Shown here: positions 6,058 through 62,966 of the stretch, one piece after another
Position numbering within the stretch: the stretch's first letter is position 1
Layout of the letters: every line of letters starts with the position of its first letter
From: Thiovulum sp. ES
GTDB lineage: Bacteria > Campylobacterota > Campylobacteria > Campylobacterales > Thiovulaceae
NCBI GenBank assembly: GCA_000276965.1
Contig: AKKQ01000003.1
Location: 462-64,461, forward strand
Reading direction: 5' to 3'
DNA: 64,000 nt
Program-made: the position numbers and the translations under genes
The notes under the pieces: model-generated
The model's input: only the letters and a program-made list of their open reading frames with translations
Database searches by the model: none
Told to the model about the DNA's origin: nothing

Positions 6058-6059
6058 TA

Positions 6060-10340: not shown

Positions 10341-10787
10341 CTATTTAGCCTCAATTTCAACATTTAGTGAAGCATGAATTCCATGCCCCAATTTTAAATC
10401 GAGAGTATAAACACCAGTGTGTTTTAACACATGAGTCGTCTCGATATTTTTTTTGTCGATTTCGATTCCAAATTTTTCAGAATAAGCACTTACAATGTCA
10501 TCTTTTGTAACAGCACCAAATAAAGCTCCGCCTTTTCCTGCTTTTCTATTGAAAACAATTTTCAGATTTTTCAGTTTTTCTTTTAAAGTGTTTGCCTCTG
10601 CAATCTCTTTTTTCTCGTTTTCAGCTTTCTCTTTTTGATCAGCCTCAAACTTTTCGAGAACATCATCGGTAGCAATTTTCGCTAAGCCGTTTTTGACAAG
10701 GAAGTTCCGACCATATCCGTCTTTAACATCTTTGACTTCACCTTTAGCTCCAGTTCCTTTAACATCTTTTAAAAGAAGAACTCTCAT
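10341..10787 (-). CDS. rplI: 50S ribosomal protein L9
   Basis: 148 aa, beginning [36 protein letters not shown]. Confidence 0.9.
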
Positions 10788-10803
10788 TTAAAATCCTTAT
10801 ATT

Positions 10804-12399
10804 TTAATAATCTCGATCTCTTCGGTCTCTTCTGTCCCGTCGATCTCTTCTGAATCCACCATCACGGTCATCACGACGATTTCCACCTCGATATCCGCCT
10901 CGATCACCACCGCCATCACGACTGCCATCACGACCGCCATCACGACGATTTCCGCCTCGGTAGCCACCTCGATCACCACCGCCATCACGATGATTGCCAC
11001 CTCGGTATCCGCCACCACCTTTTCGGTAGCCACCTCGACCGCCTCGATCTCTACCACCACCGTGCGAACTATATTTTTTAATTCGTTCGATGTCATCAAG
11101 AGTCTTTCCAATTATATCAGAACCTCGGATTTTATAATCTTCAGCGATAATTGAAGCGAATTTATAAAGTAGTGTTTTGTCATCATACTCATTCTCAAGC
11201 ATAGTAACAAGTGTTGTTCCATCATCAGAATTTTCAGTCTCTTCAACTCTACTTGCAAAACTCTCCATTTTTTTCTCTCGAACTTCTGAGATATTTGGAA
11301 TTACTTTTGTAATAAGTTTTGAACCTGTGCTTTTTTCGATTTTTTGAAGACTTCTATACTCTTGCGGAGTAATAATTGAAACTGCAAATCCGTCTCGACC
11401 AGCTCGACCAGTTCGTCCAATTCTATGAACATAACTTTCGCTATCAAAAGGAATGTGGTAGTTGAAAACATGAGTTACATCAGAAACATCAAGTCCTCGA
11501 GATGCAACATCAGTCGCAATTAAGATTTCACCATCTTTACTTTTAAAGTCTCGAATTACAGCTTCTCGAACTCTCTGTTCAATATCACCGTGAAGTGCTT
11601 TTGCTGAAAAACCTTGAGAATTTAAAATTCCTGCAACTCTATCAACTTCTCTTTTTGTTCGGCAGAAAATAATAGATTTTGTTGGGTTTTTGTAATCGAT
11701 AAGTCGAACAAGAGCTTCGTCTCTCTCTCTCTCTTCAACAACATAGTAAGATTGTGTAATATTATCGTTTGTTACTTTGTCTTTTGTGATTGAGATTATT
11801 TTTGGATCAACAAGGAATTGCTCAGAAAGGTTTCTGATTTCATGTGGCATTGTTGCTGAAAAAAGTAGAGTTTGTCTCTCAGATGGCATGTAAGAGAAAA
11901 TCTCTTTAATATCGTCAAGGAATCCCATGTCTAACATCTCATCAGCTTCGTCAAGAATGAGAGTTTTTGGAGAAATATTTATCGGGTCTGTAACCTTACC
12001 TTTGATGAGGTCAAGTAATCTTCCTGGAGTCCCAATAACAATTGATGCATTTTTAATATGATCCAATTGTCTTTTATACGAAGTTCCTCCGTAAATTGTA
12101 GCTGTTCGAATTCCTAAACTTCGACCGAATTTAAAAATTTCATCACTAACTTGAACAGCAAGTTCTCTTGTTGGAACAACAATTAGGGCTTCAACTTGCC
12201 CATTTAATTCTAAATTTGATAATACTGGCAATCCAAATGCTGCAGTTTTTCCTGTTCCTGTGTGTGCCTGTGCAACGACATCTTTTCCCTCTAAAACGGC
12301 AGGAATTGCTTCGATTTGAACCGGACTAGGCTCTACAAAACCAGCTATCTCTACTGCCTTGAAAACTTCTTGTTTTAAATTAAATTCTTTAAAATTCAT
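10804..12399 (-). CDS. DEAD-box ATP-dependent RNA helicase with an RGG/RD-rich C-terminal tail
   Basis: 531 aa. Q motif and Walker A (AHTGTGKTAAF), DEAD box (LDEADEML), SAT, HRIGRTGRAG. The last 90 aa or so are GGRDRGGRGGYRKGGGGYRGGN...RRDRRDRRDRRDRDY. Confidence 0.9.
   Translation of the reverse strand: MNFKEFNLKQEVFKAVEIAGFVEPSPVQIEAIPAVLEGKDVVAQAHTGTGKTAAFGLPVLSNLELNGQVEALIVVPTRELAVQVSDEIFKFGRSLGIRTATIYGGTSYKRQLDHIKNASIVIGTPGRLLDLIKGKVTDPINISPKTLILDEADEMLDMGFLDDIKEIFSYMPSERQTLLFSATMPHEIRNLSEQFLVDPKIISITKDKVTNDNITQSYYVVEERERDEALVRLIDYKNPTKSIIFCRTKREVDRVAGILNSQGFSAKALHGDIEQRVREAVIRDFKSKDGEILIATDVASRGLDVSDVTHVFNYHIPFDSESYVHRIGRTGRAGRDGFAVSIITPQEYRSLQKIEKSTGSKLITKVIPNISEVREKKMESFASRVEETENSDDGTTLVTMLENEYDDKTLLYKFASIIAEDYKIRGSDIIGKTLDDIERIKKYSSHGGGRDRGGRGGYRKGGGGYRGGNHRDGGGDRGGYRGGNRRDGGRDGSRDGGGDRGGYRGGNRRDDRDGGFRRDRRDRRDRRDRDY
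10871..11008. repeat. Imperfect 69-bp tandem duplication encoding the RGG tail
   Basis: TCACGACGATTTCC begins at 10871 and again at 10940 (period 69 nt). The first 50 nt or so of each unit are nearly identical. They encode RDGGGDRGGYRGGNRRD twice. Confidence 0.7.
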
Positions 12400-14827: not shown

Positions 14828-14849
14828 TTTGTCGGAGAAATCCGACAAA
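14828..14849. terminator. Bidirectional hairpin terminator; copy A of the TTGTCGGA/TCCGACAA hairpin family
   Basis: TTTGTCGGA (14828-14836), GAAA loop, TCCGACAAA (14841-14849). It lies between the convergent stops at 14825 (+) and 14853 (-). Confidence 0.7.
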
Positions 14850-14852
14850 TTC

Positions 14853-17800
14853 CTAACTTTCACCAATTCTACTTAAAAATGTATCCCCAAAATCACTCAA
14901 AACATAGAAATCTGTTTCAACTAAAAAATGTCTATTTTCATACCAAAAATAGATAATGAGTTGAAAATTTCCATTAAGCTCTTTTGCAGTTTCTCGAAGA
15001 AGAATCATTTCGCTTTTGTTTAAAAAGAAGTTCAAATTTAAATATGTTTTTCCTCTTTTAACTGTTTCTGTCGTTGGTTCATCATTTTCAATAACTTTTG
15101 GTTCAATATCTTCTTGAGTTTTGCCTTTTTTTAACTTTTTACTTTTTTCGACGACCTCATCGAGAGTAAAAAACTTTTTATAATTAAATTTGACTTCACT
15201 CCCTTCCAATTTAATTAAAGTTCTCATTCCAATCGGTTTTGATAAATCCATCTCTTTTAAAATCTCAATTTCACTCGCAAAGAAAATTAGACTAACTTCA
15301 CCAGAAGTATCTTCAATTTTTCCAATCGAATATGGATTACCAGCTTTTGAAATTTTTTCTTCACCAATATCTACAAAACCGACAAAAACCACTTCTTGTT
15401 CATGCTTGAAATTTACATTATCAATAATTTTAGAAACTTTTTTAAATTCGGAAATCTGTTCTTGAAATTCTTTAAATTTGGAATCTGAAAATTTCTGAAT
15501 TGCATCATCTAAAGAAAAAAACTCTTTGTTTTCCAATTTAAAATTCTCATCTTCTATTTTTAAAGAAGCTTTAATTCCAATTGGTTTTGATAAGTCAAGT
15601 TGCTTTAAAATTTGCATCTCTTTACCAAACATCATAAATTCAAGTTCGCCTGTGAAATCTGATATTTTTCCTTTTCCGTAGAGATTTCCAGCATTTGATA
15701 TTTTTTCCTCAAACTCAACAAAACCAACTAAAAATACTTTTTGCCAATTTTGAAAATCATCTTTTTCTGTTGTTTTTGAGATATTTTTTAATTTGGAAAT
15801 ATCTTCTCGATATTCGTCAAGTGGGTGAGCTGAAACATAAAAATTTAAAACCTCTTTTTCAAGTTCTAATTTTTCTTTCAGTCTATATTCAGTTCGTGGA
15901 ACTAATTTTAGTTCTTTTGTATTTTCGGTGAAATTGTCATCATCTCCGAAAAGTCCCTCGGAAGCACTTTTTTGTAATTTGCCAACTTCACTAGCAAATT
16001 GCACAATTTTCTCAATTTCGTCAAGTAGTGTTTTTCGATTGTAATTCGTTTTGTCAAAACCACCTGCTTTAATTAAGGATTCAAAAGTTCCTTTATTTGG
16101 TTTTACACGATTTAAAAAATCAGGAATATCTTTAAATTCTCCATTTTTTTGAGCTTCTACAATTGTTTCAACTGCACTACCGCCAACACCTTTAATTCCT
16201 TCAAGCCCAAAAAGAACTGCTTCTTTTCCATCTTTTTCAACAATTGAAAAACCTTTTTGAGATTTGTTTATATCTGGAGACAAAATTTCAATACCCATTG
16301 TTTTTGCTTCTTCAACATAAAGTGCAATTTTGTCCATGTTTCGGCTTTCAGTTGAGAGAAGAGAAGCCATAAATTCAGCAGGATAGTGTGCTTTTAAATA
16401 TGCAGTTTGGAAAGTGATCATCGCATAAGCGGCGGAGTGTGATTTGTTGAATCCGTAACCAGCAAATTTTTCGATGAGGTCAAACAGTTCTTCCGCAATT
16501 TCTCTATCAAGTCCCTGTTCTTCAGCACCGTCGGCAAATTGTGATTTATACTCTTTCATCAAATCAATCTTCTTTTTACCCATTGCTCGACGAACAATAT
16601 CTGATTTTCCAAGTGAAAAACCACCAATTTTTTGAACAATTTGCATAACTTGTTCCTGATACACAATCATTCCATAAGTTGGATCTAAAATCTCTTTTAG
16701 CTGTTCAGGAAATTCCTTACCTTCAAATGGATAAAAAATATCTTGTCGTCCATGTTTTCGTTCAACAAAATCGTCTAACATTCCCGCTTCCATTGGACCA
16801 GGTCGGTAGAGAGCAATAAGTGCGATGACATCTTCAAAATTTGATGGTTTCATTCGCTTATTCAAATCTCGCATTCCGCCTGACTCGATTTGGAACATAC
16901 CGATTGTTTTTCCCGCCGACATCATTTCGTAAACTTTTGGATCGTTCATATCGATGTCGTGCCAAACAATGTCAATATTTTTGTGTTTTTTAACCAAATC
17001 AATCGCACCAAAAATTACATCAAGTGTTTTTAAACCAAGAAAGTCAAACTTAATTAAATCAACATCTTCCAAATAATCAAGCGAATATTGGGTAACAAAG
17101 TCGCCCTCTTTTGAAAGGTGAAGCGGTGTTTTATTCCAAAGTGCCTCGTTTGAAATTACAAGTCCCGCTGCATGAATTCCTGTATTTCGTTTAAGTCCTT
17201 CTAGCTTTTCAGAAATATCCCAAACTTTTTGCAAATCAGGATTATTTTGTAGCGAGTCTGTGATTCTTGGCTCACTCTCTTTTGCTTTTTTCAGTGTAAT
17301 TTTTAGCTCTTCAGGAATCAATTTCACAAATTCATTCACAATTGGTAGCGGAATATCAAAAACACGACTCACATCTCGGATTACTCCTTTTGGCAAAAGG
17401 GAACTGAAAGTTGTAACTTGTGCTACATTTTCCCGTCCATATTTTTCCTGCACATAGCGAATAATCTCTTTCCGTTTGTTTTGTGCAAAATCCATATCAA
17501 TATCAGGCATTGAGACCCGTTCAGGATTTAAAAATCTCTCAAAAAGCAAATCATATTTTAGTGGATCGATGTCGGTGATTCTGAGAGCAAAAGCAACAAG
17601 CGAACCTGCTGCTGAATTATGAACCGTGTAATTTGTTGTTGTGTATGAGTGATCGTCTTTCACTGAAAAATCAAAAACTTCTGTTTTCTTCTTTGGGATT
17701 TTTGTGATTTTTCGAACTTTTAATTTAATGTGATCATCAAAAGTTTGATACTCTTCTTCATTGGAAGCAAAATGTGATTTTAAAACATATATATTATCAA

Positions 17801-19907
17801 GCACCTCAATAGATACTGGTTTATATGTGGATAACAAAAGCATTCTTGTATATTCAGCAATCTCTCTTTCTCTAAAAAAAAGTTCTAAATCTTCTGTACT
17901 GTTTGTATCACACATATTCTCAATATTATTACTTTGCCCTAATAACATATATAAAATGTTATTTTTTACTTCACTTGTTAAGCTATTTAATAAATTAAAT
18001 AAAGTTTGAACATTATTTTTCTTGAAAAATGAGAAAAGTATTCTGTCTTGAATTATAAAAGTCTCTTTATCTTTACTAAAAGCTCTATAAACTTTATAAC
18101 CCATTTCCAGTAAATAAATACCTAAATATCTTGACATAGAGCTACGATTTAAAACTAAATTAACAGTTTTATGCTTTTCATTTAAATAGCCATTGTATAT
18201 ATAATATATTATTAATTCAGCTAATAAATCTTTTCTAATATACCTTGAAACACCTCTTTCTGTTCGTCCAAAAAGTTCTACATCATCAAACTCTTCAACA
18301 GGTTCAAAGCTGTTTGATTTCTCATTGTAATTAAAAATTACAACTGGTTTTATAAAAATATCATTTTTGTAAAAAATTCTCTCTTTAATTAATTCAAAAT
18401 CACTGTCATCATAAAAATTTAATAAATCAAATTTGATGTCATCTGAAGTATCTTCCAAATATTTTGGAATTGGTTGAAAAAGACAATCTTTTTCAGTTAT
18501 CTCTTTTGCTTCTTTCCACTCACCATTTCCTAAATAGACTTTATGATCTCCAGTTAAAACAATTGGATTTACAAAATCTCCGTAAAAAGTCTCAATTTTA
18601 TAAAGCTCTTCTTCTATTTCATATTTGAAAGTTTCTAAAACTTCTTTTTCTCGGTTTTTGTGGCTTATGACAATATCGCCAACCTGAACCTCATCGATAC
18701 TTTTTTGAGTGAAACCAAATCCATCTTTTACATAAACTTGAGCTTCTTTTGTCAAACAGCCACGACCTGGTCCAACTGGAATATTTGTTTCACCAGAATA
18801 ACGGACAAAGTCCCAAACGATCAACATGTATCCTGGAAACTTCATACTATTTATAGTATTTATTTCGTGTTCAAGTCGGTCTCGATATTTTTGATGTTCC
18901 TCTTCTGGCACAAATTTTAATCGCTCTTCCAAACCTCTCCGAGACTGTTCAGTAAAAAGAACAGCATCATTTTCAAACGAAAATCTCTCCTCTTTTTGTG
19001 GAAGTTCTAAATCTATCTCTTTTGCATATTCAAGTGTGAATTTAAAATTTGGTGGAGTCGGATTTCCTAAATTTAGTTTCAAGTTGCATTTGTCAGCAAT
19101 CACATTTGTATTTTCAACTGCTTCAGGAATATCTTTGAAAACTTTTTCCATATCTGCGGGAGACTTGATAAAAAACTCATGAACAGTATGTCTCATTCGT
19201 TTTGGGTCGTTCCAAGTTTTTCCTGTTCCAATTGCCATATAAACTTCGTGAGCTTCAGAATCTTCTGCATTTGTATAGTGAGTGTCATTTGTCGCGACAA
19301 GCTGGATTCCCGTCTCTTTTGAAAGTCGGATGAGGTCGTTGTCGATATTAAATTGGTGTCCAATTCCGTGTCGCATAATTTCCAAATAGAAATCATCTCC
19401 GAAAATCTCTTTGTATTCTAAAGCAACTTTTTTTGCTTCTTCATACCCTTTTGAGCCTCTTTCCCGATTTTTATCACTCTGATTTAAATGAAAATTTACT
19501 TCACCAGCAAGACATGCAGAAGTGCAAACAAGACCTTCACTCCGCTCTTTCAACATTTTTTTTGGAATTCTCGGTTTGTAATACATATTTTCAAAAGCCT
19601 GAGAAGACAAATACATCAAATTTTGGTAGCCGACCTCATCTTTTGCATAGAGACAGAGGTGAAATATACCTTTCTCTTTCACTCCAAAATCGTGATTTGT
19701 TACATAAGCCTCCATTCCAATAATTGGCTTAATTCCTTCTCGACTCATTGTTTGATAAAAATCAATTGCACCGAACATATTTCCATGATCGGTGATTGCG
19801 ACGGAACTCATTCCAAGCTCTTTTATCTTTTTTGCCACATTCTTAATTTTGTTTGCACCGTCAAGTAAGGAATAGTCGGTGTGAAAATGGAGGTGTGTGT
19901 AACTCAT
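14853..19907 (-). CDS. dnaE: DNA polymerase III alpha subunit DnaE interrupted by an in-frame intein and carrying a duplicated C-terminal segment
   Basis: 1684 aa. It has an N-terminal PHP domain (HLHFHTDYSLLDG) and PVGPGRG | intein | SAAGSLVAFAL..PDIDMDF. The remaining conserved pol III alpha core runs through ..GYGFNKSHSAAYA. Confidence 0.95.
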   Translation of the reverse strand: MSYTHLHFHTDYSLLDGANKIKNVAKKIKELGMSSVAITDHGNMFGAIDFYQTMSREGIKPIIGMEAYVTNHDFGVKEKGIFHLCLYAKDEVGYQNLMYLSSQAFENMYYKPRIPKKMLKERSEGLVCTSACLAGEVNFHLNQSDKNRERGSKGYEEAKKVALEYKEIFGDDFYLEIMRHGIGHQFNIDNDLIRLSKETGIQLVATNDTHYTNAEDSEAHEVYMAIGTGKTWNDPKRMRHTVHEFFIKSPADMEKVFKDIPEAVENTNVIADKCNLKLNLGNPTPPNFKFTLEYAKEIDLELPQKEERFSFENDAVLFTEQSRRGLEERLKFVPEEEHQKYRDRLEHEINTINSMKFPGYMLIVWDFVRYSGETNIPVGPGRGCLTKEAQVYVKDGFGFTQKSIDEVQVGDIVISHKNREKEVLETFKYEIEEELYKIETFYGDFVNPIVLTGDHKVYLGNGEWKEAKEITEKDCLFQPIPKYLEDTSDDIKFDLLNFYDDSDFELIKERIFYKNDIFIKPVVIFNYNEKSNSFEPVEEFDDVELFGRTERGVSRYIRKDLLAELIIYYIYNGYLNEKHKTVNLVLNRSSMSRYLGIYLLEMGYKVYRAFSKDKETFIIQDRILFSFFKKNNVQTLFNLLNSLTSEVKNNILYMLLGQSNNIENMCDTNSTEDLELFFREREIAEYTRMLLLSTYKPVSIEVLDNIYVLKSHFASNEEEYQTFDDHIKLKVRKITKIPKKKTEVFDFSVKDDHSYTTTNYTVHNSAAGSLVAFALRITDIDPLKYDLLFERFLNPERVSMPDIDMDFAQNKRKEIIRYVQEKYGRENVAQVTTFSSLLPKGVIRDVSRVFDIPLPIVNEFVKLIPEELKITLKKAKESEPRITDSLQNNPDLQKVWDISEKLEGLKRNTGIHAAGLVISNEALWNKTPLHLSKEGDFVTQYSLDYLEDVDLIKFDFLGLKTLDVIFGAIDLVKKHKNIDIVWHDIDMNDPKVYEMMSAGKTIGMFQIESGGMRDLNKRMKPSNFEDVIALIALYRPGPMEAGMLDDFVERKHGRQDIFYPFEGKEFPEQLKEILDPTYGMIVYQEQVMQIVQKIGGFSLGKSDIVRRAMGKKKIDLMKEYKSQFADGAEEQGLDREIAEELFDLIEKFAGYGFNKSHSAAYAMITFQTAYLKAHYPAEFMASLLSTESRNMDKIALYVEEAKTMGIEILSPDINKSQKGFSIVEKDGKEAVLFGLEGIKGVGGSAVETIVEAQKNGEFKDIPDFLNRVKPNKGTFESLIKAGGFDKTNYNRKTLLDEIEKIVQFASEVGKLQKSASEGLFGDDDNFTENTKELKLVPRTEYRLKEKLELEKEVLNFYVSAHPLDEYREDISKLKNISKTTEKDDFQNWQKVFLVGFVEFEEKISNAGNLYGKGKISDFTGELEFMMFGKEMQILKQLDLSKPIGIKASLKIEDENFKLENKEFFSLDDAIQKFSDSKFKEFQEQISEFKKVSKIIDNVNFKHEQEVVFVGFVDIGEEKISKAGNPYSIGKIEDTSGEVSLIFFASEIEILKEMDLSKPIGMRTLIKLEGSEVKFNYKKFFTLDEVVEKSKKLKKGKTQEDIEPKVIENDEPTTETVKRGKTYLNLNFFLNKSEMILLRETAKELNGNFQLIIYFWYENRHFLVETDFYVLSDFGDTFLSRIGES
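17616..18758 (-). mobile_element. DnaE intein (381 aa); the endonuclease core appears degenerate
   Basis: Starts at Cys384 (codon at 18756-18758, minus strand) right after GPGRG. Ends ..NYTVHN (Asn codon 17616-17618), followed by Ser. Block B is LTGDHKV. Block F/G is VFDFSVKDDHSYTTTNYTVHN. The central region has only weak LAGLIDADG-like strings (LLAELIIYYIYNGYL) that lack the acidic residues. Confidence 0.85.
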
Positions 19908-22282: not shown

Positions 22283-22960
22283 TTATTTTGAGATTTTTTT
22301 GTAGAGTTTAAAGCAGGATTCAAGACTCTGTTCATTTGCAACAAATATTTGAAAGTGATCAGGAATTGCTTTTTTTGTTGTCTCTCCGATTGCAATAAAA
22401 ATTGCATCATTTGGAACTTCACTGTTTTTAAAAAGGCATTTTACAGAGAGAGGAGAAGTTGCAATAATAAAAGAGTTTTTCTCAATTGCATTGGATTTTT
22501 TGCAAACTGTTTGATACACAATCTCTTCTTTCTTAAAAACACCAAAATTTTGGAGATTTTTTCCAATTTCTCGAGCAACTTTTTGCGGACGAAAATATAG
22601 AAATTTTTTATCTTTAAATTTTTCCAAAATCAATTTTTCCAAACTTTCACCATTTCCCGATGAGGTCGCGAGAATTTTTCCACCAAATTTTAAAACTGCT
22701 TTTTTAGTTTTTTTTCCAACAGCAACTGCAGGATATTTTTTCCAATCTTCACTTATTCGATTTACAGCTTCTACTCCATTTTTAGAGGTAAAAATAAGTG
22801 TGTCAATTTCTGAAAAATCAATTTCTGGATCTAAAAATTGGATTTGAATTGTTGGATTTGAAATTGTTTCGTCAAATTTTGTCGGGGAGAGTAGATAAAT
22901 TCTATTCAAATTTTTCCTTCTTGATTGTATAATGAGAGTATGCAGGTTTTTTATGAACAT
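22283..22960 (-). CDS. hemD: Uroporphyrinogen-III synthase (probable)
   Basis: FTSKNGVEAV and a two-lobe HemD-like pattern; it sits beside hemA. The likely true start is the TTG at 22909 (residue 18, preceded by AAGGA), which removes the overlap with the divergent mcrC-like gene. Confidence 0.5.
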   Translation of the reverse strand: MFIKNLHTLIIQSRRKNLNRIYLLSPTKFDETISNPTIQIQFLDPEIDFSEIDTLIFTSKNGVEAVNRISEDWKKYPAVAVGKKTKKAVLKFGGKILATSSGNGESLEKLILEKFKDKKFLYFRPQKVAREIGKNLQNFGVFKKEEIVYQTVCKKSNAIEKNSFIIATSPLSVKCLFKNSEVPNDAIFIAIGETTKKAIPDHFQIFVANEQSLESCFKLYKKISK

Positions 22961-24058
22961 AATTATATTTCAAATGATAGTTTAGTTTCGTCAATTAGAA
23001 AAGATGTGTCGCTTCAAAGATACTTTACTTCTGATTTTGGTGGAATAAAAACCTCTTCATTTTGTGGCTCTCTCAAAGTTGGAAATAGCGATATTCTTAT
23101 TTTGCCAAAGATTTCAAAGAGTAGAGATGTGAATTTTAAAATATTCACATACATGATTCTCTATTCACACGATATTAAAAATAGGGATATAGACTCTTCC
23201 ACTTATCACGAAAACTTGCTTGAGGTTTTCATAGACATTTTTTCAAAAAGTTTGCTTGAAATAATAAACAGGAATGGTTTATACAAGGAGTATGTTTCTG
23301 TTCAAAATGAGAACAGTTTTTTAAAAGGGAAACTTATTCTTAAAGATTATATCTTAAAACGAAATGTTAGCAGTAAAATTTTATGCGAATATGATGAATT
23401 TAGTGCAAATCATAAATTAAATCAATTTTTTACCTACACAGTTCGGGAATTAAAAAAGTTTTCAAAGAACAAACTTTCTCTTATAAAACTTGAAAAAATA
23501 TTTAGCGAAGTCGAACCAATTTACAACGAAAAAATAGAATTCAATCACTTAAACATAAGGTTTAAAGAGAATTTTAATTTGGCAAAATTTTTGTTAAAAC
23601 ACTTGACAAATAAGAAAATTAGAAACTCTGAAAATTTCTCATTTATGTTTGATATGGATTTGCTTTTTGAAGATTTTATTGGAAAGATTTTTAAGGAAGT
23701 TGCAAATGCTAAATTGCAAGAAGTTGGATATTTTGGAAATTTAAAATTGACTCCAGATATTGTTTTAGATGACCTCATCGTAGATTTAAAATATAAGATT
23801 TTTAAAGATGAAGTTAAAAAAGAGGACAAGTATCAAATGTATATTTACGGGAACAATTTTGAGCGAAAAAATACTATGTTGCTCTATCCAAAACATTTTA
23901 AAAATGTTGAGACAAAATTAAAGCTAGGCAATAATGAACACGGTTTAAATCTTTTTGTGAGAACAATTGATTTAGACTCTGACTCAAATTATAAAGAGTA
24001 TATTTCAGAAATAAAAAAGAGAATAGAAAGGATTTTATATGATGAACGACTTAAGTGA
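22925..24058 (+). CDS. McrC-like PD-(D/E)xK nuclease subunit of a McrBC-type restriction system
   Basis: 377 aa. The C-terminal catalytic pattern is LTPDIVLDDLIVDLKYK (D...D-x-K), as in McrC. The likely start is the ATG at 22940 (MQVFYEHNY). The 3' end overlaps the next gene by 20 nt. Confidence 0.65.
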   Translation: MYNESMQVFYEHNYISNDSLVSSIRKDVSLQRYFTSDFGGIKTSSFCGSLKVGNSDILILPKISKSRDVNFKIFTYMILYSHDIKNRDIDSSTYHENLLEVFIDIFSKSLLEIINRNGLYKEYVSVQNENSFLKGKLILKDYILKRNVSSKILCEYDEFSANHKLNQFFTYTVRELKKFSKNKLSLIKLEKIFSEVEPIYNEKIEFNHLNIRFKENFNLAKFLLKHLTNKKIRNSENFSFMFDMDLLFEDFIGKIFKEVANAKLQEVGYFGNLKLTPDIVLDDLIVDLKYKIFKDEVKKEDKYQMYIYGNNFERKNTMLLYPKHFKNVETKLKLGNNEHGLNLFVRTIDLDSDSNYKEYISEIKKRIERILYDERLK

Positions 24059-26096
24059 AAAACTTAAAGGAATGAGTATATCAAATGACAATGATGTCGA
24101 AACTAAAAAGGAGAGTGAAGTAACAAAAGTAGAACAACTTGAAAAAGAGAATGATAAAGTTGAATTTTTCGTTAATGCCTCTATAAGTATTTTTATTAAC
24201 GATGGACTTTCTCAAAACTACATGTTTTTCCGTGATGCTTTTAGGGAGTTAAAACTGCTTTTAGAGAGTGCTGAATATATAAATATGGGTTATGAACCTA
24301 AAGTTGAAAAAAGTGATGCAGTCTATTTTCAGTCTAAAAGTTTTACATTTTTCTGTGCAACTGGAGAAAAAGGATTTTTAAGAGTTTTCCGTATCGAAAA
24401 AAGTGCTGAATACAATGAAGTGCAAGTTCGCAATGTCTTTAGTTTAATTGAAGAGTTAAATTGGAGCAAACCGAATTCTCATTTAGAGTATCTCTATTTC
24501 TCCCTAGATGTTGATAGAGGAATGATTAGTGGTGATTTTTTAAATGAGTTTTCAAACGATTCGATTCCTATTATATTTGAGACTGATAAAGTTCGAGAAG
24601 AGGATATTTTTTATGTAAAAGAGTATTTTAAAAACTCACAATATGTTGAGCTTTCTAAGGACAAAGAGAACTTAAATCTATATATTTACGGCTATAAATT
24701 AAAAGCGATTTTAAGTAGAAATAGAAACCACCTTTTTATTTTTAATATTGTTCTTGACTCTAGTAGTAAAAAGAGAGATTTCTATATTGATAGCTCAATA
24801 TTTAAATTTGGTTTGACTCAAGAAGAAGTTGATAACAAAGCAACAAATCCAGATGTAGACAGATTTTGGAATAGAGTGAGTCCGAAATTGGAATACTGTT
24901 TTAGCAATGTTCCAGACAAGGATATAGAACTAAATTTTCAAGCTCCAAAACACAATATTCCATTTAATAACGATATTGCAAATATTAAAAACGAGATTGT
25001 TGAACTTTTTTATAGAGGAAATCGAGCAATTATCTACACAAGCACACTCAAAATAGAGGCGATTGTTCATAAAACAAATTTCGATGTTAATGTAGATTTA
25101 ATCCGACACAATGGAAATCGAGAAACTCATAATAACTATGAGAAATTCCTTGTCAAAGGTTCTATCTTCGATGTTACCCAAGGGGACATAAAACAAAATA
25201 GAAAAGATAATCACAATCTTGTCTCTTTCCTAAGAAGCGGTTGCAAGAAAAAAGAGCAACAAAAAATTATTGAAACTCCTAAAATTGAATCAAAACCAGT
25301 TTTGACATCTAACAAGCAAGTAGCTTACAATTTTAAAAATATTATTCTTTCTGGAGTTGCTGGAGTTGGAAAAACTCACAACTACAAAAAACTTATCTCT
25401 CTTATTGAAAATGGTGTTCCTGAAAAAGATATTTTTAATGAATTGGTAAAAAACGATGAGGTTTTCTATGCAGATTTTAAAGATCGTGTTGAATTTATCA
25501 CTTTTCACCAAAGCTACTCTTATGAAGAGTTTATTGAAGGTTTCCGACCAAATGAACATGGTGGAATTTCAATTGAGAGCGGAGTTTTTAAAGACTTTGT
25601 TGATCGGGCAAAAAGAGACCAAAAGCAGAAATATTACTTTGTAATTGACGAAGTCAATCGTGGAAACATCTCAAAAATCTTTGGTGAGCTTATCACTCTA
25701 ATTGAAGATACGAAACGAGAAAATCTCTCCGCAAAATTACCTTACTCGAAAGAGAATTTCACAATTCCGAAAAACCTTTTTATTATTGGAACTATGAACA
25801 TTACAGACCAATCAATCTCTAAAATTGATATTGCATTGCGACGACGATTTATTTTTGTAAATATTGTTCCAAAACCGCAATTAGTTTGTGAAGAGTTCCG
25901 AGAAAGATTTGTTGAATTAAACAGATTTATTGGGGATAATTTGGGCGACGATTACTTGATTGGACACTCATATTTTATGAGATGTAATGGTGAGAATTTA
26001 AACTTTATTTTAGAACATCAAGTGATTCCGCTTGTTCAAGACTATTTTTATGGAGATAGAGAGAGTTTGGAGGCAATCGCTTCAATTTTGGTTTAA
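24039..26096 (+). CDS. McrB-like AAA+ GTPase/ATPase subunit with a long unrecognised N-terminal domain
   Basis: 685 aa. The C-terminal 250 aa or so has GVAGVGKTH (Walker A), FHQSYSYEEFIEG, FVIDEVNRGNISKIFGELITLIE (Walker B/McrB signature) and IIGTMNITDQSISKIDIALRRRF. I recognised no motif in residues 1 to about 430. Confidence 0.75.
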   Translation: MMNDLSEKLKGMSISNDNDVETKKESEVTKVEQLEKENDKVEFFVNASISIFINDGLSQNYMFFRDAFRELKLLLESAEYINMGYEPKVEKSDAVYFQSKSFTFFCATGEKGFLRVFRIEKSAEYNEVQVRNVFSLIEELNWSKPNSHLEYLYFSLDVDRGMISGDFLNEFSNDSIPIIFETDKVREEDIFYVKEYFKNSQYVELSKDKENLNLYIYGYKLKAILSRNRNHLFIFNIVLDSSSKKRDFYIDSSIFKFGLTQEEVDNKATNPDVDRFWNRVSPKLEYCFSNVPDKDIELNFQAPKHNIPFNNDIANIKNEIVELFYRGNRAIIYTSTLKIEAIVHKTNFDVNVDLIRHNGNRETHNNYEKFLVKGSIFDVTQGDIKQNRKDNHNLVSFLRSGCKKKEQQKIIETPKIESKPVLTSNKQVAYNFKNIILSGVAGVGKTHNYKKLISLIENGVPEKDIFNELVKNDEVFYADFKDRVEFITFHQSYSYEEFIEGFRPNEHGGISIESGVFKDFVDRAKRDQKQKYYFVIDEVNRGNISKIFGELITLIEDTKRENLSAKLPYSKENFTIPKNLFIIGTMNITDQSISKIDIALRRRFIFVNIVPKPQLVCEEFRERFVELNRFIGDNLGDDYLIGHSYFMRCNGENLNFILEHQVIPLVQDYFYGDRESLEAIASILV

Positions 26097-35741: not shown

Positions 35742-35763
35742 TGTTCGGGAAATTTCCCGAACA
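35742..35763. terminator. Bidirectional hairpin terminator
   Basis: The perfect palindrome TGTTCGGGAAATTTCCCGAACA lies between the convergent stops at 35738 (+) and 35772 (-). Confidence 0.7.
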
Positions 35764-41461: not shown

Positions 41462-43330
41462 ATGACTGAATTTTTAAAAAAGGCTTTTGGTTTTCAAAAA
41501 GAGAATCAAGAAAAGATAGAAGATTGGGATTTTTATAGCAATATTGTAAAAAGACTGGAGATTTCAAGAGAAATTCTATCTGAAAACAGGGACTATTTTG
41601 TAGCGAACTATAATAATTTAGAATTTGATAGGTTTATTTGTTTGACTGGTGAAAAAGACAAAAAGTCTTGCAGTATTATGATAGATCGCGAAACTGGAAA
41701 AATATATTTGCCAAAATGGTTTAATGAGCAAGTAGAGAAAAAAATATGGTTTTATAAAACTGGAGATACTGCAATTGAATATTTAGAGAATCTATCAGTT
41801 CGGAACATAGCAAATTGGAAAGCCGAAAACTATTCAGCACTCGACTATTTGAAGAAAAATGGAATTTTTGAGTGGCTCAATGTTGGCGACTACTTTAGTG
41901 GTTGGAATGATAAAATCATTTATAGACACAACAATTTGAGAAATTATATTGCCTTTCCAACTTCCGACTATTTTGCACTTCTTGATATTTGGGGAGAGGA
42001 TTTCACAACCCATAAATTCATAAATTTTGTAAAAAAACACAATTTTGTAATTGATGGACGAATCAATTTTGAAGATAACGATGAGGTCTCACCAAAATTT
42101 CAAACTGTTCCAAAAATTCTAAAAAACTTAGAAAAAGAGAGCGGAATAGTCCTTTACGGAAATAAAATTTCATTTCCAAATTCACTTTTTAAAAATAGTT
42201 CTCTCATTTCAAAATATGAAAATTTCATAGAATTCATAGATTTTATTCTTTGGAAAATTGAACTTTTTTCAGAAAAACATAATGAAGAGATTTTAAAAGT
42301 CTCGGAAATTCATAAAAACCTATCCGTTTTAGAAACAAAAAATAGCGACCTCATCGCATTCAATAAACTGCTTTTAGAAAATGTGGAATTCTCATTTGAT
42401 CCGACAGAAAAAATTCTACGAAAATATCGATATGAGATTTCGGAAGTTCTTAAAGATATTGAAAATCGGACAGACAACTTTTTTGAGAATAGTGAAAACT
42501 CAATTTTTGACTTTTTTCCAAATATTCAAGATTTCGATTTCAATTTAATTGGTGAAACTCTGACAAGAAAATACAATTCAAAAGTCTCAAAAATTGAAAA
42601 AATGTTTCAAAAATTGGAAGAAATTGGACAACTTTCAGAGAGTGTAAAAACAATTTTTCTCGAAGCCAACTCATTTGAAAATACAAAGAAAGATATTATA
42701 AAAAGCACTTGTGAAAAAGAGTATGTTCCTGAATCTTTTGAGGCAATTTACAGCGAATGGAATTTTCAAACTGAAATTATTTACAAACTTTATCCTGTGC
42801 TTTTCGAGAAATATTTTGAAAACACAATCTCAATAGATTCGACCCTATATATTTTGACTCTGCTTGAAAGCCTTAAAAAATACAACGAGGACTTTTTCCA
42901 AAACGAGCGAATTTCTATTATTCAAAAATATGACGGTTTAGCAAACGGAACTTTTTTGGAAAAAGCTGAGATTGAGACTCGGCTTTTTAAACATTTTCGA
43001 GATATTAGAAACGGTTTAAAAAATGCAGTTGAGAGTGAAGAGAAAATTGTCGCAAAGAAATTTATCCATTCACAAGCGGAACTATTTTTCTCATTTGAAA
43101 TTGAGAATATTTTGAACTTTTTAAAAATTGCTGGAGTTTCTGAAAAATTAAATGAAGATTTTGCTGAATTGAAAAATCGTAACTTTGAAATTCACTTAAC
43201 TAATTTTGATGTGTATGAAAAAGAGTTTGAAAAACGGGATAAAGATTTGCAAAGCTTACTTTTTAAAATGAAAAAAGAGCTTGAAATCAGGAAACTTGAT
43301 ACAAAAAAAACCAATTTGATCGATTCTTAA
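41462..43330 (+). CDS. Large hypothetical protein (622 aa)
   Basis: Long uninterrupted ORF with normal codon usage. It is Lys/Glu/Asn/Phe-rich and I recognised no motif. Confidence 0.5.
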   Translation: MTEFLKKAFGFQKENQEKIEDWDFYSNIVKRLEISREILSENRDYFVANYNNLEFDRFICLTGEKDKKSCSIMIDRETGKIYLPKWFNEQVEKKIWFYKTGDTAIEYLENLSVRNIANWKAENYSALDYLKKNGIFEWLNVGDYFSGWNDKIIYRHNNLRNYIAFPTSDYFALLDIWGEDFTTHKFINFVKKHNFVIDGRINFEDNDEVSPKFQTVPKILKNLEKESGIVLYGNKISFPNSLFKNSSLISKYENFIEFIDFILWKIELFSEKHNEEILKVSEIHKNLSVLETKNSDLIAFNKLLLENVEFSFDPTEKILRKYRYEISEVLKDIENRTDNFFENSENSIFDFFPNIQDFDFNLIGETLTRKYNSKVSKIEKMFQKLEEIGQLSESVKTIFLEANSFENTKKDIIKSTCEKEYVPESFEAIYSEWNFQTEIIYKLYPVLFEKYFENTISIDSTLYILTLLESLKKYNEDFFQNERISIIQKYDGLANGTFLEKAEIETRLFKHFRDIRNGLKNAVESEEKIVAKKFIHSQAELFFSFEIENILNFLKIAGVSEKLNEDFAELKNRNFEIHLTNFDVYEKEFEKRDKDLQSLLFKMKKELEIRKLDTKKTNLIDS

Positions 43331-44797: not shown

Positions 44798-44816
44798 ACC
44801 CTGAAAAAATCAGGGT
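44798..44816. terminator. Hairpin terminator between the convergent fliR and murE genes
   Basis: ACCCTGA, AAAAA, TCAGGGT, followed by TTTTA. Confidence 0.6.
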
Positions 44817-46798: not shown

Positions 46799-46820
46799 TT
46801 GTCGGAAAAAAATCCGACAA
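46799..46820. repeat. Hairpin family copy C (terminator of the RND-type gene)
   Basis: TTGTCGGA (46799-46806), AAAAAA, TCCGACAA (46813-46820), 4 nt beyond the stop at 46825. Confidence 0.65.
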
Positions 46821-46824
46821 AAAG

Positions 46825-50927: not shown

Positions 50928-50947
50928 TTGTCGGAGAAATCCGACAA
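50928..50947. terminator. Hairpin family copy D (bidirectional terminator)
   Basis: TTGTCGGAGAAATCCGACAA is identical over 20 nt to copy A. It lies between the convergent stops at 50905 (+) and 51017 (-). Confidence 0.7.
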
Positions 50948-51016
50948 AACTTAGATTTTATTACTCAAAAATCTTAAAACATTCAAAAAAATTATTTCTA
51001 ACCTGAATACCTTAAA

Positions 51017-57247: not shown

Positions 57248-58318
57248 TTGAACGAAATCATCAAAATAATAAGAAAAATAAATAGAATAGAGAAAGATAT
57301 AAGCGAAAATCAGACTCTAATTTCAACAATATTGCCACTTTTTCAATATTTGGATTGGGATATTTTTGATGAAGAGAGAGTTCTTTTTGAAGATACAACT
57401 TCGACAAAAAAAAGAGTTGATGCAACATTCGTAGGGAAAGATCGACAATTTATTATAGAGGCAAAAAGATTTTCAAGAAAATTATCGATGAAAGATTTTG
57501 AGCAATTAACTGTTTATATAAATAGTGATGAAGCTATAAATTTTGGACTTTTAACAAATGGATCTGAATATTGGTTGGCAGATAATAAAGGCGAGGGTCT
57601 AGAAAATAAACTTATTTATAAATTTGATGTAAAAGATTTAAGTGATTGTGATTTAAATATTCTTAAAAAATTTCTATCCTTTAATGCGAAATACGATATT
57701 GATGATATTACAAAATATATTCAATATATTGAAATTGGACAATCTTTTGGCGATAAAGAGTGTTTGAAAATTTATAATGCAAGAAGAGAAGAGGAAAAGA
57801 GAAATTTACACCCTGTAAGAGAGAATTTTGATATCGAAGCTCCAAAAAAAATTGATGAAAAAGAGATCGAAGAAGCAAAAGAAGAATCGGAACAGGAAGA
57901 TATTAAAGAGGAAAAAAGTTCTGAAGAGGTGAAAAAAAAAGTAAACTCATCTGATGATTTAGATGGAATTCAAATTATTGAAGCAGAAGCAGGTGAAAAT
58001 ATAGAGTATTTTGAAATCATAAGTAAAAGTGAAGCGAAGATATTCTTTTTAGAGCAGTTTCACATTGTTAGAGATGTAGATTTTTCGGCACTTTCAATAA
58101 AAATCCTAAATTATGTTCTTAAAAAACTAAAAGAGACTCCAGTTCTATATCAAGATGTTGTTTCTAAATTTGATTTTATTGTTGCAACTGGTGATAGAAA
58201 TATTCACTCTGGTGTTTATGAAAAAATTGGAGATGGAGTATATTTTAATTCCAATGTGCCAAATGTAGATAAAATAAGAAATATCGAGAATCTATTAAAA
58301 TATCTACATGAACAGTAA
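57248..58318 (+). CDS. Protein with an N-terminal HsdR_N-like PD-(D/E)xK domain, an acidic linker and an unknown C-terminal domain
   Basis: 356 aa, TTG start. ILPLFQYLDWDIF...KKRVDATFVGKDRQFIIEAKRF....EQLTVYI.....NFGLLTNGSEYWL fits the type I restriction HsdR N-terminal-like fold pattern (D...E-x-K). Confidence 0.45.
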   Translation: MNEIIKIIRKINRIEKDISENQTLISTILPLFQYLDWDIFDEERVLFEDTTSTKKRVDATFVGKDRQFIIEAKRFSRKLSMKDFEQLTVYINSDEAINFGLLTNGSEYWLADNKGEGLENKLIYKFDVKDLSDCDLNILKKFLSFNAKYDIDDITKYIQYIEIGQSFGDKECLKIYNARREEEKRNLHPVRENFDIEAPKKIDEKEIEEAKEESEQEDIKEEKSSEEVKKKVNSSDDLDGIQIIEAEAGENIEYFEIISKSEAKIFFLEQFHIVRDVDFSALSIKILNYVLKKLKETPVLYQDVVSKFDFIVATGDRNIHSGVYEKIGDGVYFNSNVPNVDKIRNIENLLKYLHEQ

Positions 58319-58322
58319 TTCG

Positions 58323-58341
58323 GATGAGGTCAGACCTCATC
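58323..58341. repeat. Perfect 19-nt palindrome made of two inverted copies of the abundant 9-mer (candidate terminator)
   Basis: GATGAGGTC A GACCTCATC. It lies between the stop TAA at 58316-58318 (+ gene) and the stop at 58340-42 of the minus-strand ORF. Confidence 0.85.
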
Positions 58342-58660
58342 AAGCCTTTTTATCTAATTTGTGTCTTGGTTCAAGAAGTGATTTCAAATTTTTGATATTT
58401 CGCTCGACTTTCACCATGTTTGTTTTAAGATTATTCCGAAAATCCACAAGCAAAATTAGAATTTCTCTAACAAGAAATTGTGCTTTTCGCATATCTTCTA
58501 TGCTTTGAAATTCTGGTAATTCACCTGCTGAAAGAGTTTCTAATCTATTAAAATCTTCAACAACAATAGCGGATTTGACAGCATCAAACCACTCTTTACT
58601 ACTCTGCTTCTTGCTCTTTTGTTTCTGCTGAATTGATTCCAGTTTCTTCTCTCCATGCAT
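58340..58660 (-). CDS. Small helical protein downstream of fliS (positional FliT-like candidate)
   Basis: 106 aa. It occupies the position after flaG-fliD-fliS where Helicobacter/Campylobacter carry a small chaperone-like ORF. It overlaps fliS by 62 nt, and no alternative in-frame start exists downstream of the overlap. Confidence 0.4.
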   Translation of the reverse strand: MHGEKKLESIQQKQKSKKQSSKEWFDAVKSAIVVEDFNRLETLSAGELPEFQSIEDMRKAQFLVREILILLVDFRNNLKTNMVKVERNIKNLKSLLEPRHKLDKKA

Positions 58661-59045
58661 CTAAAAGACCTCTAACAACATTTGTAACACTTTCAAGTTT
58701 TTCCAAATCATCGTTTCTATTAACTTCAAAAAGAACTTGAATTTGGTGAGAATATAACCCTTCGAGATATTCTGAAATTGTTCCTTCAGCTTTTTTATCA
58801 AGTGCTGAAATCAATTCCGCAAAAATATCACCAGTCCGATTTAGCCACTGGATTTTTGCCTCAACATCACCTTCTTGAATCGCTTTTGCCGTATTTCTAT
58901 TAAATGTAAGAATTCCTTCGTAAAGAGCCTCTACAAGTTTGATTTTTGATTCAATGTGTAGATTATTTCTTTTATAAGCTGTAACAGCACTGTTTTCTTC
59001 GTCTTCGTTTGCTTTTTTCTGATTTAAAAGTTCTTGAGTTGTCAT
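58599..59045 (-). CDS. fliS: Flagellin-specific chaperone FliS
   Basis: 148 aa. LVEALYEGILTFNRNTAKAI....IFAELISALD....ISEYLEGLYSH....GLLDAW is the FliS pattern. Confidence 0.85.
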   Translation of the reverse strand: MTTQELLNQKKANEDEENSAVTAYKRNNLHIESKIKLVEALYEGILTFNRNTAKAIQEGDVEAKIQWLNRTGDIFAELISALDKKAEGTISEYLEGLYSHQIQVLFEVNRNDDLEKLESVTNVVRGLLDAWREETGINSAETKEQEAE

Positions 59046-59057
59046 TTTCTTCCTAAA

Positions 59058-60437
59058 TTATTTAGATGATTCCATGTCGATCATCATTTGAATTGAGTTA
59101 AATTGTTGATTCCACTGTGCAATCAATGTATCCGCCTGAATAAATTGTTCAGCCATTCGTGCATATCGTCCGTCAAGCATCGCAATATTTTTTTCCCGTT
59201 CATCATTCAATCGGTCTTGTTCAGTTGTAATATTATTAGAAATATTATTTAAAATCCCGTCTGAATTTGTGTACATTTCCATAATTTGATTTAAATCATA
59301 GAAAACACCATCTTCGTGAGTTGTTATTCCACGATCTTCGACATCTTGTCCGAGAAAGAAATTCTCAATATTTTCTGGGTCTTCATTAAATTTTTCAAGA
59401 AAAGTTTCGCTGTCAAATTCAAGAGAACCAACATTATTAAGTGAGATTCCAAATTCAATTAAAGAACGATTTTCTGAATCCATCGATAAAAGTTTTCGCT
59501 TAATTGTTTGAGTGATTGCCGTGATATTATTATCACCCTGAAAAGCTCCAGTCTCATCACCTTCTTGATCGAATTTTGTCATCTCTTCAATTAAAACTGA
59601 AAGCTCATTGTAAGCATCAACAAAAGATTGGACTTGCAACATAATACTATTTGTGTCTGGTTCGATTGTGATTTCAATTGGATTTTCATTCACTTGAGTT
59701 AATTCCAATTCAATTCCAACAACTAAATCGGTAATTGAATTACTATTTCTTGTGATTGGAGTTCCGTTAAAAAGAAATTCCGAATCAACCCCTTTTTGAA
59801 TGTGATTTTCTTCAGCAGAAAAGTTTGTAGAAAGACCCTCTTCAGAAACAATAATTTCTGAATCATCGCCAGTGTCATTACTTGTAATTGTTAGTCGATA
59901 TTCAGAGTCGCCAGTTTTTAAAACTTTCGCAGTAACAGGAGCAGAAGAATCATTGATCAAATCTTTCAAATCCGTCATAGTTGTTGATGAGGTCAAATCA
60001 AAAGAGTATTCTATTCCACCAACTGTAATACTCATTGTTGTATCTTCACTCGCAACTGTTTCAGTCAAAGATGAAAATCCATCGCTTTGAACAATATCTT
60101 GTTTCGCAAGTTGCAAAGTTTCAACAGTGATAGTTTGTGGAGAAACACCTTTATCTATTGATAAATTTATACCCTCTTCAGAAACATAAGCACTTCTTTG
60201 CAGAAATAACATTTCATCATTAAGAGATTCTACTGTTGAGCTAAAAGCAGTTACTTTTTCAGAAATAAGACCGAAAGCTTCAGACCGAGCAGCCGCACCT
60301 TCAATATTTCTATCAATAGGATCAATAATCACGGCATCATCGGCAGCACGAAGTTTATCAAGAGTCTCTTGACTTAATCCCGTGCTTGTTCCAGTAACCG
60401 CTTCAGAACCGAGTCCAATTAGACCTGTTGAAGCCAT
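59058..60437 (-). CDS. fliD: Flagellar filament cap protein FliD
   Basis: 459 aa. The N-terminus is LGSEAVTG...LDKLRAADDAVIIDPIDR. The C-terminus is LDGRYARMAEQFIQADTLIAQWNQQFNSIQ. It sits between flaG and fliS. Confidence 0.85.
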   Translation of the reverse strand: MASTGLIGLGSEAVTGTSTGLSQETLDKLRAADDAVIIDPIDRNIEGAAARSEAFGLISEKVTAFSSTVESLNDEMLFLQRSAYVSEEGINLSIDKGVSPQTITVETLQLAKQDIVQSDGFSSLTETVASEDTTMSITVGGIEYSFDLTSSTTMTDLKDLINDSSAPVTAKVLKTGDSEYRLTITSNDTGDDSEIIVSEEGLSTNFSAEENHIQKGVDSEFLFNGTPITRNSNSITDLVVGIELELTQVNENPIEITIEPDTNSIMLQVQSFVDAYNELSVLIEEMTKFDQEGDETGAFQGDNNITAITQTIKRKLLSMDSENRSLIEFGISLNNVGSLEFDSETFLEKFNEDPENIENFFLGQDVEDRGITTHEDGVFYDLNQIMEMYTNSDGILNNISNNITTEQDRLNDEREKNIAMLDGRYARMAEQFIQADTLIAQWNQQFNSIQMMIDMESSK

Positions 60438-60440
60438 TCC

Positions 60441-60815
60441 CTATCCTTTTTTGTCTAAGATTGAACCAATCTCTTTCATAAGACTAGATAATTTTAGAGC
60501 TTCATCACTAGGGATTTTTCTGATTTCATCACCGCTTTTTTTGTCAGTAACAACTATATACATTGAATCAGCCTCTTCGTGATAATGAAAAGAGACTTTT
60601 TCGTTCATTGAAGTATTCATACTTTTAACTAGATTTTGCATTTTTTCCCGCATTTCTCGTTGTTCAGTTGTTACCGCAATTGACTCTTGTTGAAATTCTC
60701 GAATAGCTTTTTCACCAGCTCCTTGTTGAAATGGAGTTTGTGCATGTGTTTGTGTAGGAACACTTTGCTGAACTTCAGTAGGAACACTTTGTGCAGTTGT
60801 ATTTGAAATGTTCAA
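60441..60815 (-). CDS. flaG: FlaG family protein
   Basis: 124 aa. VSFHYHEEADSMYIVVTDKKSGDEIRKIPSDEALKL is the FlaG core. TTG start with an AAGGAG Shine-Dalgarno. Confidence 0.8.
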   Translation of the reverse strand: MNISNTTAQSVPTEVQQSVPTQTHAQTPFQQGAGEKAIREFQQESIAVTTEQREMREKMQNLVKSMNTSMNEKVSFHYHEEADSMYIVVTDKKSGDEIRKIPSDEALKLSSLMKEIGSILDKKG

Positions 60816-62898: not shown

Positions 62899-62915
62899 GT
62901 CGGAAAAATTCCGAC
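62899..62915. terminator. Hairpin family copy E (variant) with T-runs on both sides
   Basis: TTTTTT GTCGGAA AAA TTCCGAC TTTTTTT, just 3' of the SulP-type gene. Confidence 0.65.
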
Positions 62916-62966
62916 TTTTTTTAGTAGTTGTAAGCAACTTTGTAATTTGGATCATCTTCGTTATAT

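Follow-up and report, generated by a model that had tools for sequence, protein, structure and literature searches.

In a 64-kb stretch of Thiovulum sp. ES DNA, referred to here as the window, two copies of a short and abundant word lie in inverted orientation between the ends of two convergent genes, where together they form a perfect palindrome. The question raised by this locus is whether the pair serves the ends of the transcripts, the word itself, or nothing at all. Our judgement, which is evenly poised, favours co-option of the abundant word into a 3'-end hairpin whose stem it forms and which is probably a weak terminator, the word itself being most likely an uptake signal. Alone, the pair is one modest hairpin; its interest is that it connects the word with the use of uptake words as terminator stems, a secondary role that is known of them.

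Structure of the convergent junction

The palindrome is 19 nt long, lies at 58323-58341 and has the form GATGAGGTC-A-GACCTCATC. Its perfect symmetry and its position between convergent stops, both described in the earlier note, were confirmed. The features of the region are listed below in window coordinates.

57248-58318, plus strand: upstream convergent gene, 356 aa, with an N-terminal HSDR_N_2 domain (PF13588, E=1.3e-6)
58323-58331, plus strand: left arm, a single occurrence of the word (GATGAGGTC), which makes the 5' half of the hairpin in a plus-strand transcript
58332, no strand: centre base of the palindrome, A, which with both neighbours makes a 3-nt loop, C-A-G
58333-58341, minus strand: right arm, the reverse-complement copy of the word (GACCTCATC on the plus strand), with a 2-nt overlap with the stop of the minus-strand gene
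58340-58660, minus strand: downstream convergent gene after fliS, a small conserved protein of 106 aa as called, whose TGA overlaps the right arm
58347-58351, plus strand: TTTTT run, candidate U-tract for the plus-strand transcript, 5 nt past the stem after an AAGCC spacer
58599-60815, minus strand: cluster of fliS (58599-59045), fliD (59058-60437) and flaG (60441-60815), matched by the TIGR00208 FliS, FliD and FlaG models

The plus-strand ORF ends in a TAA at 58316-58318, and the hairpin begins 4 nt further on. The TGA of the minus-strand ORF appears on the plus strand as TCA at 58340-58342, and the palindrome occupies the 21-nt gap separating the two stops. That the minus-strand stop lies inside the right arm, as had been noted earlier, holds for two of its three bases, but not for the third (58342), which is outside the arm. 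Folding gave an 8-bp stem with four G-C pairs and a 3-nt loop, with an energy of -11 to -12 kcal/mol on either strand and modest z-scores (-1 to -2.2).

The two arms had further been called the only intergenic copies of the word. This is true of the 9-mer provided that the copy at 6007 counts as coding; that copy is read in frame, as Asp-Glu-Val, in a 56-aa lipoprotein-like ORF (5888-6058) with a lipoprotein-type signal. The remaining 9-mer copies are all within long ORFs, and the pair is very probably the only non-coding occurrence of the 9-mer in the window.

HSDR_N_2, the domain found in the upstream product, is the N-terminal domain of the R protein of type I restriction enzymes (PF13588). 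On the other side, the small ORF is the last gene of the flaG-fliD-fliS cluster. Its product matched no family in a protein family search; the ORF aligns at the same position in seven Thiovulaceae loci, was called as a gene by JGI, and is by these sequence comparisons taken to be a real gene. A transcript of the flaG-fliD-fliS cluster would run into the hairpin.

The abundant word is selected at the level of DNA

The 9-mer GATGAGGTC was found 37 times in the window, against an expectation of 0.21 copies (mean of dinucleotide shuffles). Its strict core is the 8-mer GATGAGGT, which has 55 copies in 64 kb (0.86 per kb; 29 on the plus strand and 26 on the minus strand) and an enrichment estimated from base composition at about 46-fold. 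C precedes the core in 38 of the 55 copies and comes after it in 37, and C-GATGAGGT-C is the usual form in the ES lineage. When the copies were aligned, conservation beyond the word was limited to -1 (C) and +10 (G or A). Cores are fairly evenly spaced in the window, with a minimum of 109 nt apart from the pair and a maximum of 3.3 kb. No excess of one-mismatch variants was detected in the window (23 observed versus 28-43 expected), and variants at position 8 (A, C or G for T) were absent from it, where about three were expected; as to mismatches, the word appears to be all-or-none.

Some features of individual copies were also recorded. The extended consensus, CGA-TGAGG-TCG, is self-complementary in part, seven copies are alike further to the left (TAGC-GATGAGGT), and some single copies lie within small local hairpins in genes (e.g., 9254-9274 and 42345-42357). 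GC skew in the window tracks gene orientation and carries no information on the replichore.

The 34 copies of the 9-mer in long ORFs are oriented with transcription in 18 cases and against it in 16. One preferred reading frame is shared by 28 of them; 16 encode Asp-Glu-Val (DEV) in the sense orientation, and 12 encode Asp-Leu-Ile (DLI) in the antisense orientation. Seventeen of the 31 DEV tripeptides are spelled GATGAGGTC (GAT GAG GTC), whereas codon usage predicts 2.7%, and 12 of the 17 DLI tripeptides are spelled GACCTCATC (GAC CTC ATC), whereas 0.33% is predicted. The DEV tripeptide is itself 4.5-fold above the frequency expected from amino-acid composition. Because rare codons are used specifically inside the word, we conclude that selection on the word acts on DNA, not on protein.

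Several other explanations for the abundance of the word were tried and rejected. A peptide-driven repeat was ruled out by the codon usage, and a mobile-element remnant by the finding that conservation around the copies spans just 8-11 nt. The word holds a ribosome-binding-like GAGGT, but a signal acting at the level of RNA or translation was excluded because sense and antisense orientations are used equally. Chi (recombination hotspot) and KOPS (translocase-guiding) words are strand-biased, and words of this type were ruled out by the equal use of both strands.

Distribution and dialects of the word in the Thiovulaceae

Loci of relatives were fetched by means of FliS and a chemoreceptor from seven other Thiovulaceae genomes, among them the closed genome of Ca. 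T. stygium, CP091137.1 (PMC9938260). In these seven genomes GATGAGGT was present on both strands at a density of 0.36-0.9 per kb (215 kb sampled in total, ES included). The pooled cores are divided 78/75 between the strands, and those of the Ca. T. stygium segment, which lies 61-82 kb into the closed chromosome, 8/9. The bases flanking the core differ by lineage: C..C in ES and in L188 and L195, the relatives with 97% and 78% FliS identity, respectively; mostly Y..T in L001, L196, L199 and L202; and mixed in L002, L206 and L207. The outgroup locus L201 had no core copy, but this locus is just 3.9 kb long.

Comparison with the 97%-FliS relative, which has 92.5% DNA identity to ES over 14.3 kb, showed that 14 of 16 cores are common to the two. 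The common cores contain no internal substitution, while the adjacent bases often differ. Inverted or clustered copies were also seen inside genes of relatives (L196, 16936-16959; L202, 9166-9222), and in the asd gene of L202 three copies within 57 nt encode ...ADEVDADEV...NLIV....

The junction in related genomes

The HSDR_N-like gene is present at the junction only in the lineages closest to ES, those of the C dialect, with 92% identity in L188 and 64% in L195. In the group L188-L194, both arms of the palindrome are unchanged between the same flanking genes in seven independent metagenome contigs, and the nearby flanks are altered. An amplification artefact or assembly chimera, a concern with ES as a single-cell amplified genome, was ruled out by the occurrence of the junction in these contigs. 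All 18 arm bases are kept in the 97%-FliS relative, where we estimate that about 1.3 changes would be expected at the local divergence, a difference that is not significant alone. The centre base is A in ES (58332) and T on the same strand in this relative (L188, 6171), as would result from inverting the whole palindrome or from one substitution in the loop.

In L195, a single copy of the word lies 1 nt past the stop of the same HSDR_N-like gene, and this is the copy that corresponds to the left arm in ES. The 3' half of the word forms the 5' arm of a hairpin, AGGUCGGA-ACUC-UCCGACCU, which is followed directly by UUUUAUAUUUU. Judged by sequence, the hairpin together with UUUUAUAUUUU is a canonical intrinsic terminator. 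The ES site differs in that its 3' arm complements the whole word, and because the entire word is complemented, the U-run is shifted 5 nt from the stem. L195 suggests a path by which the pair may have arisen, from a word that pairs through its 3' half only to the ES arrangement, in which the 3' arm is the full complement. Once a complete word lies in a perfect stem, the opposite arm would automatically be a second, inverted copy. The suggestion in the earlier note that the pair shows the word to be tolerated, or selected, outside coding constraints consequently adds little, since a word lying wholly in a perfect stem makes its inverted copy automatically.

The corresponding junction of Ca. T. 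stygium (L199) carries AACCTCATC-gaatagt-GATGAGGTT between the small ORF and another convergent gene, with the two copies in the opposite order. A word-containing hairpin is thereby found at this junction in three lineages. At more distant loci the genes overlap at the junction, or an unrelated hairpin is present there.

Is the hairpin a terminator?

A simple terminator scan flagged the site as terminator-like (eight pairs, four of them G-C, and a loop of 3). On the plus strand, AAGCC separates the stem from UUUUU, and at this distance of 5 nt the U-run is barely within the scan window. On the minus strand no U-tract was seen; CGAAUUACUG comes after the stem. The scan itself carries little weight, because the counts of terminator-like sites in the window were not clearly above those of shuffled sequences (7 versus 9.8 and 12 versus 9.7 in two window segments; higher, at 15 versus 7.3, in the third only). 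The role of terminator that the earlier note had proposed is supported in part: a hairpin does stand at the 3' end of the gene, and its counterpart in L195 has the canonical form, but in ES the U-run is displaced on the plus strand and absent on the minus strand. On its anatomy, the site probably terminates transcription weakly and in one direction, or else stabilises a transcript at its 3' end as a hairpin; termination is what we infer. For the HSDR_N-like gene on the plus strand, this would mean weak factor-independent termination or protection of the 3' end of its mRNA, and for the flaG-fliD-fliS-small-ORF transcript on the minus strand, at most a structural barrier at its end.

In several respects the site resembles ordinary intrinsic terminators: it has a short G+C-containing hairpin, a 21-nt convergent gap and a T-run downstream, and sibling junctions are similar. 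Three other short convergent junctions in the window (14828-14849, 35742-35763 and 44798-44816) have G+C-containing hairpins of 7-9 bp flanked by A/T runs. Unlike those of ordinary terminators, the ES stem consists wholly of a word repeated throughout the genome, and its U-run is 5 nt off on one strand and absent on the other. Loops of 20-24 nt, as in two of the word pairs of relatives, are unusual for intrinsic terminators and poorly suited to termination.

A second hairpin, (T)TGTCGGA-N4-7-TCCGACA(A), occurs in four copies in the window (14831-14850, 46801-46822, 50930-50949 and 62899-62917), always intergenic and with A/T runs alongside. From its sequence and placement, it looks like the standard terminator stem of the ES genome. 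At the orthologous junction of L195 this stem is fused to the abundant word, as AGGTCGGA-GT-TCCGACCT.

Inverted pairs recur at the ends of genes

Pairs, defined as inverted cores with a gap of at most 30 nt, were counted in a pooled set of nine loci from eight Thiovulaceae genomes (215 kb, 153 cores). Only 15 of the 153 cores are non-coding, and 10 of these 15 sit in five inverted pairs. The five non-coding pairs, four of which are independent, compare with 0.15 expected, and four or more were obtained in none of 50,000 random placements. Coding pairs, on the other hand, were about as frequent as expected (2 versus ~1.5, pooled). All five non-coding pairs lie no more than 60 nt downstream of a stop codon. 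One is the ES pair, one follows an FKBP gene in GCA_030152305.1 (L207), and three belong to Ca. T. stygium; two of the latter are duplicates of each other, and one of the L199 pairs follows pheT. The positions of the Ca. T. stygium pairs are:

CP091137.1, ~69,270: inverted pair
CP091137.1, ~72,045: inverted pair
CP091137.1, ~73,110: inverted pair

The excess depends on the lineage. The 64 kb of ES contain a single pair, and the word is not enriched between genes there: 2-3 of the 55 cores are non-coding, matching the 6% non-coding share of the window. Of the 17 copies in the sampled segment of Ca. T. stygium, 8 lie outside coding sequence. The arrangement that the earlier note cited from Neisseria and Haemophilus, with inverted pairs characteristically at gene ends, is supported by the relatives, where pairs recur after stops beyond chance, but with one pair in 64 kb it is not characteristic of ES. 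These results indicate that hairpins made of paired words are genuine and recur at the ends of genes in this clade, with the ES site as a conserved example.

The same counts bear on a different view of the pair, in which it is a double uptake signal parked in cheap non-coding DNA, with both orientations present to ensure recognition regardless of the strand or end by which the DNA enters, and a hairpin that is incidental and has no role in RNA. The clade spacing of the pairs (1, 7, 7, 20-22 and 24-26 nt) would matter little to a DNA signal and much to a terminator, and the poor U-tract at the ES site and the pairing of two thirds of the non-coding words are likewise what a double signal would lead one to expect. 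However, the word is otherwise evenly spaced, the smallest gap after that of the pair being 109 nt, and clustering is not the rule. Moreover, every pair is close behind a stop rather than anywhere in non-coding DNA, and L195 has a canonical terminator with one word at the same position. We regard a double signal as unlikely, although it deserves to be kept in mind.

It was also considered that the site has no function and came about when two of 37-55 copies happened to meet within 64 kb or when a palindromic duplication took place locally. In simulations that scattered 37 words over 64 kb, 13% of trials produced an inverted pair no more than 12 nt apart and 4% one no more than 3 nt apart. The first figure, together with the single instance in the window and an arm conservation that in the 97%-FliS relative is not significant alone, is compatible with coincidence. 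The frequency nevertheless falls to about 0.2-0.8% when location in the non-coding 6% of the window is required, and is well under 1% when the narrow gap (at most 3 nt) is asked for as well, and the pooled excess of pairs and the recurrence of a word-containing hairpin at the junction in three lineages already disfavour coincidence, which we consider improbable.

It could also be proposed that the palindrome is a site for protein binding or recombination at the edge of a variable gene slot. The slot convergent with the small ORF holds the HSDR_N-like gene in ES, L188 and L195, and L196, L199 and L001 each have an unrelated gene there (319, 261 and 136 aa, respectively); in L199, a ~150-bp duplication flanks the inserted gene with a pair in each copy, and a perfect 19-bp palindrome would itself be in keeping with such a site. 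No recombinase or transposase was found among the profile-searched neighbours, however, the arms are a genome-wide word that is overwhelmingly coding and unpaired, and, to the extent that the data show it, neither the pair after pheT (L199) nor that after the FKBP gene (L207) is at a variable slot. There is little reason to favour this view. The L199 duplication is direct (10661-10805 and 11719-11869, either side of the 261-aa gene in CP091137.1), and the duplicated ~150 bp consist of the 3' end of the small post-fliS ORF and the inverted word pair.

Outside the Thiovulaceae, a metagenome scan for GATGAGGTC-N(0-12)-GACCTCATC gave at least 120 loci, and those listed were background, none of them being word-rich; one AT-rich match among them with a gap of 1 (L162) lay inside an unrelated membrane-protein gene. 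A scan of viral sequences for the pair likewise gave background only. The identical 19-nt palindrome was observed in contigs of unrelated organisms with 48-55% G+C (L069, L075, L077, L121, L128, L131, L159, L168, L182 and L185). These high-G+C palindromes have 4-6 extra complementary bases per side (e.g., aatgc...gcatt or accc...gggt), and a 481-kb contig has two of these palindromes, as do two short contigs, in which they are ~700 bp apart. Single word copies are not enriched there, and the palindrome in those sequences looks like a separate repeated hairpin element.

The word as a putative uptake signal

The preferred reading has a second part, which concerns the word and not the hairpin. 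By analogy with known systems, the word would be a species-recognition signal for DNA uptake in natural transformation, which would have spread by uptake bias and recombination as in the Neisseriaceae and Pasteurellaceae. The analogy with uptake signals that had been drawn in the earlier note is favoured by the density of the word, its strand symmetry, the selection at the DNA level, the core common to the family and the flank dialects, but it is weakened by the one-mismatch variants, which are not elevated. Published uptake words, such as those of Haemophilus and Neisseria, come with many near-matches. We know of no system besides uptake words that combines about one site per kb, equal use of the strands, in-frame coding placement and flank dialects.

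Annotated genes in Thiovulum genomes include comEA, comEC, comFC, dprA, the CtsD/PilQ secretin and type IV pilus genes (PMC9938260); in the 64-kb window, profile searches detected no genes for transformation machinery or for a sequence-specific receptor. A 2025 survey gives the uptake words as the DUS of the Neisseriaceae and the USS of the Pasteurellaceae (bioRxiv 10.1101/2025.10.24.684340). Our search of the literature turned up no such word described in Thiovulum or other Campylobacterota, and a search for the word sequence returned only primers and eukaryotic sequences.

Like the Neisseria DUS, the Thiovulum word is an abundant word in the range of 8-12 nt, with about one copy per kb on both strands, and is present family-wide with dialects; its non-coding copies, as in Neisseria, prefer inverted pairs past stops that form hairpins (PMC1852404, PMC3630211, bioRxiv 10.1101/2025.10.24.684340). 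The two words, GATGAGGT and GCCGTCTGAA, are unrelated, and the phylum here is Campylobacterota. About half of the Neisseria DUS are in terminators (bioRxiv 10.1101/2025.10.24.684340), whereas ~90-95% of the Thiovulaceae copies are coding. Other differences from Neisseria are that ES has just one pair per 64 kb and that its U-tract is displaced.

The resemblance to the Pasteurellaceae USS extends to the coding copies: in both cases most copies are genic, stand in preferred frames and encode tolerable tripeptides (here DEV and DLI), and the proteome is distorted. A minority of USS copies, too, form inverted pairs at gene ends (PMC1852404). The Thiovulum word differs from the USS in sequence and in having no evident AT-rich flanking segments, and in Thiovulum the one-mismatch variants are not elevated and the ES intergenic fraction is not enriched. 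Terminators that contain the uptake word make up ~55% of the high-confidence terminators in Neisseria and 17-29% in the Pasteurellaceae (PMC1852404).

The DNA-uptake problem has also been addressed within the same phylum, in a different way. Campylobacter jejuni faces the same task of taking up self DNA preferentially, and its CtsM RAATTY system marks a common 6-mer by methylation, without any word becoming over-represented; the imprint in Thiovulum, in contrast, is an 8-mer enriched ~46-fold.

That the word is the footprint of some other strand-symmetric DNA process, such as a site for a nucleoid or segregation protein or a biased repair, with the pair being merely a hairpin that results from it, would account for one-mismatch variants at or below background, and the partly self-complementary consensus hints at a dimeric binder; the known alternatives Chi and KOPS are strand-biased, which the Thiovulum word is not, and an RNA-level signal is excluded by the equal sense and antisense use, so that we attach a low probability to this explanation.

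We infer an uptake role for the word from these likenesses. On this basis the Thiovulaceae may represent a third, independently evolved uptake-word system, with a strict core (GATGAGGT), dialects, an imprint on the proteome and co-option of the word in hairpins, a proposal that we hold with about as much confidence as doubt. That the pair at 58323-58341 is the ES example of such hairpin co-option within a third system has, in our view, a chance of being right that is near the midpoint. If the proposal is true, recognition of self DNA in transformation has arisen another time, in a remote phylum, and the word would allow natural competence to be recognised from genomes alone where the organisms cannot be cultured; the Thiovulaceae are uncultured, free-living sulfur oxidisers. 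It would also open the debate on molecular drive versus selection to study in a new lineage with its own dialects.

Other genes of the window were noted in passing. A McrBC-type methylcytosine restriction system, with McrC-like and McrB-like AAA_5 proteins, is encoded at 22925-26096 on the plus strand and would be relevant if incoming DNA is screened. RecA (3695-5890, plus strand, 731 aa) matches the model for an intein-containing recombinase RecA and appears to carry an intein, and the DNA polymerase III alpha subunit (14853-19907, minus strand, 1684 aa) has an Intein_splicing match between its polymerase domains, an apparent intein as well.
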